NCBI GenBank assembly: GCA_951406725.2
Contig: OX597832.1
Coordinates: forward strand, 1,674,001-1,738,000
Source: Octopus vulgaris
Lineage: Eukaryota
Direction of reading: 5' to 3'
DNA length: 64,000 nucleotides
In this document: positions 9,061 to 49,309 of the stretch, piece by piece
Layout of the letters: the number at the start of each line of letters is the position of its first letter
How positions within the stretch are numbered: position 1 is the stretch's first letter
Program-made: the position numbers and the translations under genes
The notes under the pieces: model-generated
What the model was told of the DNA's origin: nothing
Seen by the model: only the letters and a program-made list of their open reading frames with translations
The model's database searches: none

Positions 9061-10160
9061 AGCAGCTTAATCGGGGAAACTTTCGTTGTAGTGACATCAA
9101 TGCGATGCAAGCGTACGACACAAGACGCCGATAATAGGTTGAACGATATTTTGACAGCAAGCCTGTCTATCGAGTTCGAAATAAAAAGGAATAAAAATTC
9201 AAAATTATAGAAATTCAAATTTAAAGTATGAACATGAGCACCCGGCGTCCACACGTTGATGGAATGACATCATCAGTTTTATAACTGGCGAAAAGAAAAA
9301 GACAGAAAAGAAACTCTCGAAAAGGAAAGAAAAAAGAAATGGAAATAGAAGAAAAATATTCAATCAAACAGTTTTGTATAATACAAGTAAATAATACACG
9401 TAAATAAGTTTAGTATAAATTTGATGATATTCTCCTGTCATTTTATTCATTCTTCCAGGGCATGATATTAATAACCCGCAAACATATTTCTCCCCATGCA
9501 TTTTATGTATTGAAAGGGAAGCAGATTCAGAATATTTTGAGAATATGTAATTTCAAGTCTTCCTCAAAATTGCAGCCGCTTGAAACGAAGTGTTCAGCAA
9601 GTTCTGTCGAACTACCGTTATTGTGCCTGACGTCATATCTGTGCCCATGAAATCTTTTGTTTAATTGTTCTGTTGTGCAACCAACATAAATGAAGTTGTG
9701 TTTCGTGCATTCTGACGCGTACACCAAATGGCGAACAGTACATGTTTCACCTTCTGTATAAATCACAACGTTTCTGTTATTGTGGCACAATGAAAAGCGT
9801 ACTTCTCTTGTGGCTGTTTTTCAAGGTACGGTGTGCAGAGACTCCAATATTAGTTTTCTTGGAATCAGAAATAGCAGTTAATAGATCTCTTATATTTTTT
9901 ATTCTGCCTAAAGACCACAATAGGTGGCTGACTAAATATCTGTTTGAAACACGGATATATTTTCGCCACATGCTGGTAAATTTCATGCAACACTTTTGAA
10001 ATACTATCGAAATTTCGGTGCCAGTTAATCACTAAAGGAATTCTGTCACATATTGCATTGCGTTTGCTAAAATTATGCGTGAAGGTTTGACTTTCTTTGC
10101 TAATCTCAGCTATCTCATTTGCTATTTCTTTTAATTGTAAAGCATTTGCATATTTTCAGT
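9060..10160 (-). mobile_element. Penelope-like element 3' portion with GIY-YIG endonuclease and 3' UTR
   Basis: ORF 9527-9790: CTVRHLVYASECTKHNFIYVGCTTEQLNKRFHGHRYD...ELAEHF. Confidence 0.8.
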
Positions 10161-27258: not shown

Positions 27259-27311
<53 letters not shown>

Positions 27312-27315
<4 letters not shown>

Positions 27316-27668
27316 TAAGCAATTAAGGGTTTAGCAACGAATTGCCTCACCACACACCGAATTTAGAAATAGCAGTCAAAGAGTTATAGCTATTCTTTCT
27401 ACTAAAAGGGAGATCTCAGTAAAAACACAGCACTTTCAAGTGCTGTGTTTTTACTGAGATCTCCCTTTTAGTAGAAAGAATAGCTATAACTCTTTGACTG
27501 CTATTTCTAAATTCGGTGTGTGGTGAGGCAATTCGTTGCTAAACCCTTAATTGCTTAGTATTACTTAAATTTTCCTCGAATGAGGCTTTTACATGCCGAA
27601 ATCTACTTGGTGTAATTAATAATTATTCCAAATTAATTAATTTCACCCTTTATTGTTACTGATAACCA
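27312..27668. mobile_element. (TA)n-flanked fold-back element related to the 39.3-41.1 kb unit
   Basis: Perfect 124-bp inverted arms 27312-27435/27438-27561 with 2-nt loop; shares TAGAAATAGCAG(T/C)CAAA, CTTTTACAT..CTTGGTG and AATTAATTAATTT.ACCCT motifs with the 565-bp unit. Confidence 0.8.
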
Positions 27669-27672
27669 TATA

Positions 27673-27739
<67 letters not shown>

Positions 27740-36105: not shown

Positions 36106-37094
36106 ATATTATGAAAGTCTGTTTTTCCTGTCTCCAGTAAGGGGTGGTGGGGCACAATAAGTAACATTTACTGCATTTTTGGCTTTGAGGAAAAAAATAT
36201 TTTTATAAATGTTCACTATCCAACAAGAACTACATCAACTAACCTCTAAAATGTATTAAAATCACTATAACATATTCAGAACACTATTTCAGAAAATTAC
36301 CTTTAATCTCTTTGAGCATATAAAAGACAAATTTAGATGGGTCAAAATGAGTAAGGAAAGACAGATAAATTAGCCTCTTCAATTCTCTAGAATTACATTT
36401 GAAAAAATCCATACACATCAATATCTACGTCAAATGATATTGAATCATAGGAAAATAACATAATATGAAATTAACGAAATTTGAATAAATCAAAAAACAA
36501 AATATTCTCTATAGCTTCTTCACGATCTGCTGAAGTGGCCCTCTGCAGAATTCTGGTTTAAACACCCCATATAACCCTAATAACATCTTAATTTTGGGGA
36601 ATTTTCAAAATACACGAGGATTCATACAATTATGAAATTTTGTTTTGTATTTTTTAAGTAGTCTTAAATTTTAACTTCAATACGGCAATAGACCATTAAG
36701 CGTGTTTATGGAGAGAAAAATATTGAAAAACATCGATACGCTAAAGTAACAATGATAGAAGAAGGCTATCAGGTGGTCGTGAGATGAGCTAGAAATGACA
36801 GCCAAATAGCCCTTAAATCAGACGCAAAAAAACTTTTTTCTTGTTTTTTCATAGCTGTATGAATTCCTATATGTAGAATATAAATTCGCAAAAATTTTCT
36901 GAAAATTCCAAAAACTAGAAATAGAGATGTTACATGGGGTAATTAAAGCAGAATTCCCCCTGGCTCTCTTCCTGATACATTTATGCACCATGCAGTTAAA
37001 GAGAAGAGATTATTCAAATTACTCATTACTCATTTTGTCTAGCTGAGTTCTAGAGGAACTCACTTGTCGCAGGTTACATTCCTGGTCATTTTTC

Positions 37095-38552
37095 TTTCTA
37101 GTCTGTCGTTCCAGTTTTCAAAAAGGGAAAGAAATCTCTTGCAGCGAACTACCGTCCGATTTCACTCTCCTCTCATATCATTAAAGTATTTGGAAGGGTG
37201 GTGAGATCGCGAATAACTCACTTCCTCGAAGACAACAATCTGCTGAACCCCAACCAGCATGGTTTCTGTGATGGTAGGGACTGCCTGTCGCAGCTTCTGT
37301 ATCATTTTCATGACTTTCTAAAAGCTCCAACACTGACGTCATATACCTTGATTTCAGCAAAGCATTTGACAGAGTGGCCACAAAATCCTGCTGAAGAAAC
37401 TGTCCAACATTGGAGTCTGTAGAAAGCTGCTGCAGTGGATAAAGTGTTTCCTAACGAACAGAACCCAACATGTTATGTTTGAGGTAATCCGATCAAGCTC
37501 AGCCAAAGTCAGTTGTGGTGTCCCACAAGGTACTATTTTGGGCCCACTCCTTTCATTATCTACTGTACGTCAATAGCTTAGTAGACGTCATCAAACATTC
37601 TACATTGAAAATCTTTGCAGAAGATTCCAAACTCCAGGAGGCCATAAACAGTATGAGAGACCGAACATGCCATCAGTCGGATCTGTTTGCTGTTTTCCAG
37701 TGGGCGGAAAAGAACAATTTGCTTCTAAATGAAGATAAGTCTAATTTGATCCACTTTGGAAAAGTGGATGCTCTAAAACTGCCATATGACCTTCCCTCGG
37801 GCGACTCTTTAGTGTCATCCAACAACACCACAGAACTTGAAGTAATTGTTGATAACAATCTAAGTTGGAGTTCCCACGTAAACAGCAAGGTTGACCTGGC
37901 CCACAAGATCTGCTCCTGGTTTCTGAGAACTTTCCAATCTAGAGACACCCACACCATCATCCTTCTCTACTCTACTTTTGCCTGACCCCACCTTGATATT
38001 GCTGCCCACTGTGGTCTCCCCACACGAAGCAACTTATTATGAAAGTGGAAGCACTCCAGAAGTCAATAACATGAAAGATTAGACGGCATGACAGGCATTA
38101 GCTATTGGAGTCAACTCAAAAAGTTTAATCTCTAGTCTCTCCAACGCCGTCGGGAGCGCTACATCATTTGTGTGATGTGGAAAATATTCCATCAATATTG
38201 CGCAAATGATGTTGGCATCAATTTTAAAATCCACCCAAGACTTAGCTCCCGTGCTACTCGCCCACTACAAAAATCTAACTCAGGACACATACAACTACTT
38301 TACCTCAACCGGTCAAGCTCTCTTTAGTATCATATCAAAATACGTCAAAACAGAAACGGAACCCATAAAACTCAAAAGTTCTCTGGACAAATTTCTTCAA
38401 AAAATTCCGAACCATCCTCCTACACCCCAACAATAATAACTCTTTGCTGGAGTTGGCCATGGTGTCCCATATATGACTAAAAGATTTCACCAGATGGTGC
38501 TATTACATTAGACATGGCCTGGGCCTATACTGGCCGAAACCATTCAAAGTTA
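37095..38552 (+). mobile_element. CR1-clade LINE 3' half
   Basis: NYRPISL, NQHGF, YLDFSKAFD, GVPQGTILGP, KIFAEDSKL, YCCPLWSP; 3' UTR to ~38550. Confidence 0.88.
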
Positions 38553-39309: not shown

Positions 39310-39347
<38 letters not shown>

Positions 39348-39529
39348 ATTAGGGCTTAGTAAAATAAATTACTTTGCCACATACTGAACTTAGTAGAAAT
39401 AGCAGCCAAAAAAAAATTTTCTTAGCATTTCTACTACTTAAAGAAAATTTCTCTCAGATAATGTTTACTCCAGACAGCTCACGAAGGTTTGGAGGTAAAT
39501 ACAGAAAAATATCACAAGTACATAGATCG

Positions 39530-39592
39530 TTTGAGTACGTCAACGTTTCAAGATTAGCCAAATAAAATCAGCATTTCTTTCGTCAGCTCAAA
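39530..39592 (-). ncRNA. Type I hammerhead ribozyme, copy 1
   Basis: Reverse complement of 40779-40841. Confidence 0.8.
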
Positions 39593-40094
39593 ATTTCTTA
39601 ATTTGGATTTGGAAACACTAAAAAGAAGGAACTTTACCTATCAGCGAACTTGTCGCTTCAGATGAACCACTCCAACTAACAGTGTCAACAAATTCAAAAT
39701 GCGCAGGCGTAAATTTCTGCACTCCCCATTCCATCCACGTGGTCTATCTAGCAAACATTATATTTTAACCGCGAGAACCGAGGCAGTATGACCGAGAGAA
39801 ATGAATTATAATATCAAGAATTGAGGGTAAAATTAATTAATTAATCAATTTCACCAAGTGTTCAGTATGTAAAAGGACCATTTAAGGCGAATTCAAAATA
39901 TTACATTATATAATTAGGGCTTAGTAAAATAAATTACTTTGCCACATACTGAACTTAGTAGAAATAGCAGCCAAAAAAAAATTTTCTTAGCATTTCTACT
40001 ACTTAAAGAAAATTTCTCTCAGATAATGTTTACTCCAGACAGCTCACGAAGGTTTGGAGGTAAATACAGAAAAATATCACAAGTACATAGATCG

Positions 40095-40157
40095 TTTGAG
40101 TACGTCAACGTTTCAAGATTAGCCAAATAAAATCAGCATTTCTTTCGTCAGCTCAAA
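40095..40157 (-). ncRNA. Type I hammerhead ribozyme, copy 2
   Basis: Reverse complement of 40779-40841, 565 nt from copy 1. Confidence 0.8.
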
Positions 40158-40778
40158 ATTTCTTAATTTGGATTTGGAAACACTAAAAAGAAGGAACTTT
40201 ACCTATCAGCGAACTTGTCGCTTCAGATGAACCACTCCAACTAACAGTGTCAACAAATTCAAAATGCGCAGGCGTAAATTTCTGCACTCCCCATTCCACC
40301 CACGTGGTCTATCTAGCAAACATTATATTTTAACTAGAGTAAACATTATCTGAGAGAAATTTTCTTTAAGTAGTAGAAATGCTAAGAAAATTTATTTTGG
40401 CTGCTATTTCTACTAAGTTCAGTATGTGGCAAAGTAATTTATTTTACTAAGCCCTAATTATATAATGTAATATTTTGAATTCGCCTTAAATGGTCCTTTT
40501 ACATACTGAACACTTGGTGAAATTGATTAATTAATTAATTTTACCCTCAATTCTTGATATTATAATTCATTTCTCTCGGTCATACTGCCTCGGTTCTCGC
40601 GGTTAAAATATAATGTTTGCTAGATAGACCACGTGGGTGGAATGGGGAGTGCAGAAATTTACGCCTGCGCATTTTGAATTTGTTGACACTGTTAGTTGGA
40701 GTGGTTCATCTGAAGCGACAAGTTCGCTGATAGGTAAAGTTCCTTCTTTTTAGTGTTTCCAAATCCAAATTAAGAAAT

Positions 40779-40841
40779 TTTGAGCTGACGAAAGAAATGC
40801 TGATTTTATTTGGCTAATCTTGAAACGTTGACGTACTCAAA
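40779..40841 (+). ncRNA. Type I hammerhead ribozyme, copy 3
   Basis: Stem I TTTGAG/CTCAAA; CTGACGA 40785-40791; stem II AAGA/TCTT; GAAA 40822-40825; minimal stem III ACG-TTGA-CGT; GTA triplet 40833-40835. Confidence 0.85.
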
Positions 40842-41118
40842 CGATCTATGTACTTGTGATATTTTTCTGTATTTACCTCCAAACCTTCGTGAGCTGTCTG
40901 GAGTAAACATTATCTGAGAGAAATTTTCTTTAAGTAGTAGAAATGCTAAGAAAATTTATTTTGGCTGCTATTTCTACTAAGTTCAGTATGTGGCAAAGTA
41001 ATTTATTTTACTAAGCCCTAATTATATAATGTAATATTTTGAATTCGCCTTAAATGGTCCTTTTACATACTGAACACTTGGTGAAATTGATTAATTAATT
41101 AATTTTACCCTCAATTCT

Positions 41119-41169
<51 letters not shown>

Positions 41170-49153: not shown

Positions 49154-49188
49154 AGCAAGCTACTTACCACACAGCCACTCCTGCGCCT
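49154..49188 (-). mobile_element. SINE 5' head (A-box part) separated from its body by 4.3 kb
   Basis: Minus strand AGGCGCAGGAGTGGCTGTGTGGTAAGTAGCTTGCT; continues into 44827 by comparison with the uninterrupted copy at 1980-2030. Confidence 0.9.
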
Positions 49189-49293
49189 AAAATATGGAAC
49201 GCTTCACGTATTTGCGTCACCCTTGCGCAGGAGTCATGCTAATCTTCTCTGCATCGTTCCAATTTTAGTATATATGTACTGCCGAAGCAGTAC
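49189..49293 (-). pseudogene. RNU6: U6 snRNA retrocopy, full length
   Basis: Minus strand GCTTCGGCAGTACAT(AT)ATACTAAAATTGGAACGATGCAGAGAAGATTAGCATGACTCCTGCGCAAGG..GCAAATACGTGAAGCGTTCCATATTTT; ACAGAGA box mutated and small indels. Confidence 0.95.
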
Positions 49294-49309
49294 ATATACT
49301 AAAATGGTA

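Follow-up and report, generated by a model that had tools for sequence, protein, structure and literature searches.

A dispersed 565-nt hammerhead repeat of Octopus vulgaris, probably copied into (TA)n tracts from two fixed sites by the enzyme of a Penelope-like element

How does a short non-coding RNA come to be copied for more than one of its own lengths and inserted head to head with itself? The question is raised by a locus within the 64-kb stretch of Octopus vulgaris DNA analysed here (the window), in which a 565-nt non-coding unit with a hammerhead motif forms two opposed arms of 1.76 and 1.40 units within (TA)n (39311..41168). For animal retrozymes, both the mobilising enzyme and the copying of circles have been proposed, and not demonstrated, in the sections considered here of PMC7229834, PMC4209133 and 10.64898/2026.07.22.740005. 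We put at about 0.62 the probability that the present element is a retrozyme inserted by the reverse transcriptase-endonuclease of a Penelope-like element (PLE), which would have cut (TA)n and started reverse transcription at two fixed sites of a monomer that was likely circular. New in this analysis are a count of the rule that the ends follow, a haplotype test for monomer copying and one hybrid locus that names a candidate donor. The 565-nt family offers a clean test case for the spread of self-cutting RNAs, the self-cutting motif being predicted.

The locus, its hammerhead and its family

Positions within the unit are numbered from the first base 3' of the predicted hammerhead cut (u1). In the RNA sense, both arms of the window locus point outward from their junction (5'-to-5'). 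The original prediction, made from the letters of the window, had described a 565-bp unit read 1.76 times on one strand and about 1.4 times in reverse from another register. The coordinates (Table 1) bear this out, and the minus-strand cuts predicted at 40101 and 39536 are indeed 565 nt apart. The copies had also been said to differ by a few bases: the passes of the left arm differ once in 430 nt and those of the right arm not at all in 224, and a T-tract at u119-128 distinguishes one arm from the other. The longest frame of the unit, on the antisense strand, is of 65 aa and its GC content is 34%; the surrounding genome, of 2.8 Gb, is rich in microsatellites. The window locus represents a single young copy of a non-coding hammerhead repeat, 565 nt long, that is dispersed in the genome.

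Table 1. Features of the 565-nt element in the window, and loci elsewhere that bear on its insertion
Feature	Position	Strand	Basis or remark
Left (TA)n target tract	39311..39339	.	sequence
Left arm, u332 to u196, 1.76 units, ends at start site A	39340..40334	-	
Type I hammerhead, predicted cut after 39536	39530..39592	-	sequence, covariation
565-nt monomer between two predicted cuts	39536..40100	-	
Type I hammerhead, predicted cut after 40101	40095..40157	-	sequence, fold, covariation
Head-to-head junction, two extra bases TA	40335..40336	.	
Right arm, u66 to u290, 1.40 units, ends at start site B	40337..41124	+	
Type I hammerhead, predicted GUA cut after 40835	40779..40841	+	sequence, fold, covariation
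Structured core, about u100-u290, holds sites A and B	40935..41124	+	
94-nt 'tail' between sites A and B, right end only	41031..41124	+	
Right (TA)n target tract	41125..41168	.	sequence
Young Hydra-clade PLE	L422:2844-8313 (G000:C4)		5.2-5.7 kb unit
713-aa frame of the Hydra-clade PLE	L422:6172-8310		
Hybrid locus L027	L027:1376-2291 (G000:C8:30195046-30198609)		between two (TA)n tracts

Each unit combines a stem I of 6 bp, CUGACGA, stem II, GAAA, a stem III of 3 bp capped by a 4-nt loop, and a GUA site. The 57-nt motif occurs in 245 exact copies genome-wide and its reversed control in none. In 11 variants drawn from the 565-nt and sister families the core is invariant, while N7 and the cleavage-site bases vary as allowed. 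In the stems of these variants 89% of cells are paired (about 35% paired with partners slid) and 11 of the 17 pairs are changed on both sides; double-sided changes affect 35 cells, against 14 in shuffles, a control that is inflated by sequence kinship. The exact copies against none reversed, together with the covarying stems, indicate that the hammerhead is not a chance occurrence. The complete minimal type I hammerhead predicted for every unit is thus upheld, the window locus having three intact motifs. At the gathering score, Rfam recognised no hammerhead in the window; its sole match was a U6 snRNA gene or pseudogene (49188-49295, minus strand, 85.8 bits). Taken by itself, the hammerhead does not fold more stably than shuffled sequences do (z about -0.5). 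Its predicted active fold as a single motif, at -9.2 kcal/mol, is close to the minimum of -9.6. Since the first pair of stem II is A-U in the 565-nt unit, instead of the usual G-C, and is unpaired in 8 of the 11 variants, cleavage may be slow. Stem III is self-complementary in every family examined, so that dimer pairing is possible (self-duplex of -11.4 kcal/mol in the 565-nt unit); a self-complementary stem III is the dimer design described for PLE hammerheads in the relevant part of PMC4209133. Eight of nine predicted Xenopus retrozyme dimers gave no cleavage in vitro, according to the main account in 10.64898/2026.07.22.740005. Folded as a circle, the whole monomer reaches -151.4 kcal/mol, with z-scores of -6.6 in sense and -3.1 in antisense; for the monomer of a 583-nt sister family the scores are -4.05 and -0.72 (40 shuffles in each case). 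The monomer is thus predicted to be highly self-paired, more strongly in the sense strand.

A DNA search with the unit returned 1544 first-look candidates; the 40 that were scored are mostly 96-100% identical. Genome-wide there are 1013 copies of a 40-nt core word, and a core motif that the family has in common with its sisters gave 8655 matches; neither reversed control gave any. Two samples of loci were mapped. The first comprised 95 loci, 94 after removal of one segmental duplicate, chosen for a full-length unit or an exact hammerhead, and long arms are therefore over-represented in it. The second and less biased one comprised 41 loci picked by the 40-nt core word, from which 11 passenger duplicates were dropped for end counts. 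Sister families have units of about 560-594 nt. The 583-nt sister aligns with the 565-nt family across the whole unit, indicating that the non-coding, circle-length unit is old. The core is about 67-72% identical to that of sister families and would likely be a protein-binding region; compensatory changes occur in only 2 of the 17 pairs predicted for its consensus. A G-rich stretch starting with CACG (about u355-385, in the region of window positions 40653-40700), outside the core, is conserved between the 565- and 583-nt families and could be a promoter or structure element. Contigs from four runs guessed to be RNA cover the unit, some of them across the hammerhead; contigs are blind to transcription, strand, ends and circles.

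The window holds further insertions. At 27262-27737, a member of the 583-nt family (2882 first-look candidates) lies between two (TA)n tracts as an A arm (27312-27435, minus strand) and a B arm (27435-27671, plus strand), too short to contain the hammerhead. A 490-nt repeat, which has a related core motif and a hammerhead whose stem II is long, is inserted head to head at 446-1352; elsewhere its arms extend up to 6.1 units, and the two-end rule described below holds. Two degraded GIY-YIG ends of other PLE families were seen on the minus strand (2515-2907 and 9530-9757). Broken frames at 37043-38082 (plus strand) resemble what we take to be a remnant of a LINE-type reverse transcriptase.

Evidence for repeated copying of one monomer

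A template in the form of a circular monomer should leave the same haplotype in all passes of a locus. Passes within an arm diverge at 0.67% of sites (134 of 20039) and the arms of a locus at 0.73% (151 of 20794), against 1.77% between loci. At seven common polymorphic sites, passes were discordant in 10 of 219 comparisons within arms and in 2 of 219 between arms, as compared with 37.6% between loci. Twenty-six locus-private alleles, distributed over 17 of 76 loci, are carried by every copy of their locus; another 126 alleles are present in one copy only. The window locus has such a private allele, C at u283, in three of three copies. The pattern recurs in the 583-nt family (0.70% within arms, 0.91% between arms, 2.12% between loci) and in the 490-nt relative (0.51%, 0.44-0.49% and 2.6%, respectively), where private alleles spanning both arms are found in 7 of 7, 6 of 6, 5 of 5 and 4 of 4 copies. 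The clonal passes and private alleles suggest that each insertion involves, or closely follows, the rebuilding of multimers from a monomer, as the sections on this point propose for PLEs (PMC4209133) and for retrozymes (PMC7229834). These results support the original claim that one monomer is copied for more than its own length; judged from the haplotypes, the template was probably a circle.

The same element and the same two-start PLE mechanism could operate without a circle, on a linear, uncut multimeric RNA whose units are regenerated or homogenised by strand transfer or gene conversion. We consider this unlikely, yet several observations lean towards it. One locus (L109) has unit-specific alleles at matching template positions of both arms, as expected if a linear RNA of two units was the template; it is the only one of the two-armed loci examined to show this pattern. 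Between-arm divergence is 0.62% at the same template position versus 0.78% one unit apart, a difference short of significance (P 0.20). For the 490-nt relative these figures are 0.44% and 0.49%, and none of its alleles is tied to the same unit index in the two arms; some alleles of this repeat are restricted to two adjacent units, showing that conversion after insertion does happen. The Anolis element PAc (Poseidon from Anolis) chiefly uses uncut RNA in vitro, and its hammerhead is dispensable for insertion, according to the assays described in PMC11167929. Pure linear copying, on the other hand, only shortens arrays, yet the eight arms of at least 1.85 units are long and clonal and represent eight distinct haplotypes, 5-19 substitutions apart. 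The clonal passes expected from a circle would equally result from homologous strand transfer along a linear RNA with terminal redundancy, and sequence cannot distinguish the two. Arm-specific alleles at another locus (L112), and the T-tract of the window locus, indicate that the two arms need not derive from the very same molecule.

Coding relatives and fixed 3' ends

Could the unit belong to a coding element? In this reading it would be the pLTR of an unsampled coding PLE, or a recent internal-deletion derivative of one, and its copies the 5'-truncated ends of that element. Precedents exist: Li et al. report, in the text of 10.64898/2026.07.22.740005, that 24 of 57 Xenopus retrozyme families are homologous to known elements (PLEs in 21 of the 22), and PMC4209133, in its survey of copies, has most PLE hammerheads in truncated ones; the PLE families examined here are a part of the genome's total. 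We nevertheless judge this origin improbable. Arms run to 3.57 units (the longest, in the first sample) with no break into coding sequence, and their 5' ends are scattered. No arm continues into a PLE frame in the 94 and 41 loci of the two samples, in agreement with the original description of an element lacking an attached ORF. Those PLE fragments and protein matches that do occur in the flanks are nested or adjacent insertions, discontinuous with any arm, and apparent neighbours at L103, L030, L116, L134, L256 and L290 were rejected on the same grounds. The age of the non-coding unit implied by its alignment with the 583-nt family also counts against a recent derivative. Four protein searches, and the flanks of the PLE groups examined, revealed no PLE end homologous to the unit or its core, and the core is missing from the 3' regions of these groups, bar a fossil passenger insertion (see below). 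The mapped loci showed no LTR layout. Having no reverse transcriptase and GIY-YIG ORF between terminal repeats in the 94 and 41 loci, the element is not an autonomous PLE.

The outer ends of the arms proved to be highly ordered. In the 94 loci of the first sample, 137 arm ends abut (TA)n, which bears out the predicted targeting of TA microsatellites; a minority of arms end elsewhere. With (TA)n on both flanks, a target-site duplication is unreadable. Site A, which spans u180-210 with most ends at u196, accounts for 72 of the 137, and site B, which spans u262-296 with most ends at u290, for 61; the other 4 lie at different places. The two sites are 94 nt apart, each just 3' of a predicted hairpin in the core, which is conserved between families. 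The original prediction had the ends permuted, and the mapping of registers in the 94 and 41 loci agrees neither with free permutation nor with a single register: the 3' ends occupy two fixed sites, and the 5' ends alone are scattered round the unit (first sample). The two-armed loci of the first sample comprised 40 with one end at A and one at B, one with two B ends (L072), none with two A ends and three with one end elsewhere; the second sample gave 14 A+B and one other (n = 15). Taking both samples, A is paired with B in 54 of 55 classifiable two-armed loci (P 1.6e-15 versus a coin toss). An inverted, 5'-truncated head-to-head copy is present at the window locus and at 58 other two-armed loci.

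Counts by eye gave a similar picture in other elements of this genome. The 583-nt sister has A+B ends in 12 of 15 loci and neither A+A nor B+B in any, with a query biased towards B-bearing loci, and the 490-nt relative has A+B in 15 of 15. Two autonomous PLEs obey a two-end rule as well: a Hydra-type element in 10 of 10 cases, with ends 73 nt apart, and a Neptune-like element in 3 of 3, with ends 38 nt apart. Site A resembles the tail end of the Neptune-like PLE over 20 nt; this resemblance ranked in the top 2% of the repeat's 30-mers for two families, not for a third, and was given no weight. A telomere-template-like CCCTAA near site A is noted as a lead.

The combination of A+B ends with an inverted 5'-truncated copy is the published PLE footprint of a 'tail at one end'. 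We infer two separate primings, one at each DNA end, whose products are joined at their far ends; that these primings are the work of a PLE seems to us highly probable. Of 52 junctions, 24 overlap by at least 2 nt, where chance would give 18%; inserted bases are present at 16. The 5' ends of the 565-nt family show a weak excess near the predicted cut (5 stops in 15 nt versus 11 in the surrounding 90 nt); in the less biased second sample, 2 arms stop at u17-24 and 25 pass. The pile-up is clearer in the 490-nt relative, in which 8 of 35 arms begin 11-20 nt into the unit. For the most part, polymerases read through the hammerhead site.

The route originally envisaged was a single one, in which one reverse transcriptase starts at a random register of a circle, runs round it and switches to the opposite strand, leaving permuted ends and an inversion. 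It would account for arms that are clonal and more than one unit long, a self-priming model for PLE inversions is set out in the section of PMC3846280 that deals with them, and both arms start at the same register in 2 of 37 loci. But both outer ends correspond to RNA 3' ends and pair A with B in 54 of 55 loci, a regularity not foreseen for one polymerase that switches once; this route is very improbable. Twin priming of the L1 type was rejected: the 5' end of one arm abuts the priming site of the other in 2 of 37 loci either way. That the inversion of the window locus is an assembly fold-back can practically be dismissed: the joints listed for contigs from four public runs (DNA or unlabelled) do not include 40334/40337, but the insertion itself may be absent from these runs, the arms are unequal in length, register and sequence, and more than 50 other loci have the same layout, each with its own junction.

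Candidate enzyme, proposed insertion route and known systems

A recurrent passenger copy pointed to an abundant young PLE (20,522 first-look candidates). This Hydra-type element has a 713-aa frame, over 1100 relatives, its own hammerhead, (TA)n targets and the motifs RW(K/R), DKT, CxCX5C, CxxC and CxH, which are those given for the Hydra clade in section 11 of PMC8557442; its length is due to a long, microsatellite-rich 3' region. Nearly all of 40 loci examined carry, in that 3' region, one fossil A+B insertion of a close relative of the 565-nt family, which has spread as a passenger of the PLE. Another autonomous element, a young Neptune-like PLE (L054:744-5990, G000:C6), occurs in many intact copies and has a 781-aa RT-GIY-YIG frame with a further frame upstream, (TA)n targets and a hammerhead-like motif with a non-standard core.

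A more direct connection came from the hybrid locus L027. Between two (TA)n tracts it consists of a retrozyme arm of 1.46 units, which has its end at A, and 95 nt of the Hydra-type PLE, the two overlapping by 2 nt. The PLE part is 98.9% identical and extends from 2 nt after the predicted cut of that PLE to the end of its tail; the A+B rule is thus followed across two RNAs, and the junction contains neither TA nor a second retrozyme arm. Since the hybrid was met once in 66 free 5' flanks and the Hydra-type PLE often has ends near TA tracts, it may instead have arisen from two successive insertions. Resting on this one hybrid, the abundant Hydra-type PLE is, by a modest balance, the likely enzyme donor. 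The link to Penelope-like elements in the original prediction is supported.

A route consistent with these observations would run as follows. Multimeric transcripts would cleave themselves and the monomer be ligated into a circle, a step that we hold to be probable. A dimeric PLE protein would then cut both (TA)n strands, and each DNA end would prime one cDNA, one at A and the other at B. Synthesis of each cDNA would continue round the template over a random distance, beyond hammerheads left uncut, and the two cDNAs would be joined at their far ends through short microhomology or a few added bases. A Hydra-clade PLE of the same genome would supply the enzyme. More tentatively, a Hydra-clade dimer might spread animal retrozymes at large, with subunits committed to different start sites that prime both (TA)n ends, roll round the circle, can hold two RNAs (as at L027) and recognise RNA by structure rather than by end homology. 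The strict one-A-one-B rule constrains models of PLE inversions, suggesting an asymmetric two-primer complex rather than self-priming. With a defined RNA, start sites at u196 and u290, a named candidate protein with open frames and a signature of monomer copying, the question is ready for the published PLE in vitro assay.

In the main texts of the literature searched, mostly outside subscription journals, nothing was found on the 565-nt family, on a strict two-end rule for retrozymes or on retrozyme-PLE hybrids. By sequence criteria the element is an animal non-LTR retrozyme, a kind already known, for which mobilisation by PLEs has already been proposed. With the metazoan non-LTR retrozymes, as presented in the main descriptions in PMC7229834 and 10.64898/2026.07.22.740005, it shares non-coding, low-GC tandem units with a type I hammerhead in each, a highly self-paired monomer and coexistence with autonomous PLEs, which both sources name as likely mobilisers. 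Its monomer of 565 nt exceeds the 170-400 nt given in PMC7229834 and lies within the 51-972 bp of 10.64898/2026.07.22.740005. It differs from the long arrays of these descriptions by its dispersed short head-to-head insertions, and from the retrozymes as published in that no homologous PLE terminal repeat was found among the PLEs examined here. Fixed ends, a one-A-one-B rule and hybrids are not part of those descriptions.

The insertions also resemble the footprint of EN+ PLEs. In the portions of PMC8557442 and PMC3846280 devoted to it, this footprint comprises 5' truncation, partial tandems, an inverted 5'-truncated head-to-head copy, a tail at one end only, (TA)n targets and a hammerhead just upstream of the ends, all of which are seen here; in the same portions, MRC1 represents non-autonomous head-to-tail derivatives of PLEs. 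The octopus repeat departs from this footprint as a 565-nt element without an ORF, with a tail of 94 nt versus 30-40. In PAc, as characterised in the passages of PMC11167929 on its insertions, the tail is the stretch between two adjacent internal start sites of the reverse transcriptase, both strands are cut in AT-rich DNA, and a dimer is predicted. Two adjacent start sites and a hammerhead upstream of them are common to PAc and the 565-nt element. The start sites of PAc lie in the ORF, about 30-40 nt apart and with no homology to the target (same passages), while those of the 565-nt element lie in non-coding RNA, 94 nt apart, and both are TA-like. The Hydra-type PLE, finally, is the proposed helper and not the element itself, its ends having no clear homology to the retrozyme core. 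As a candidate donor it combines the clade motifs described in section 11 of PMC8557442 with a hammerhead, (TA)n targets and the two-end rule.
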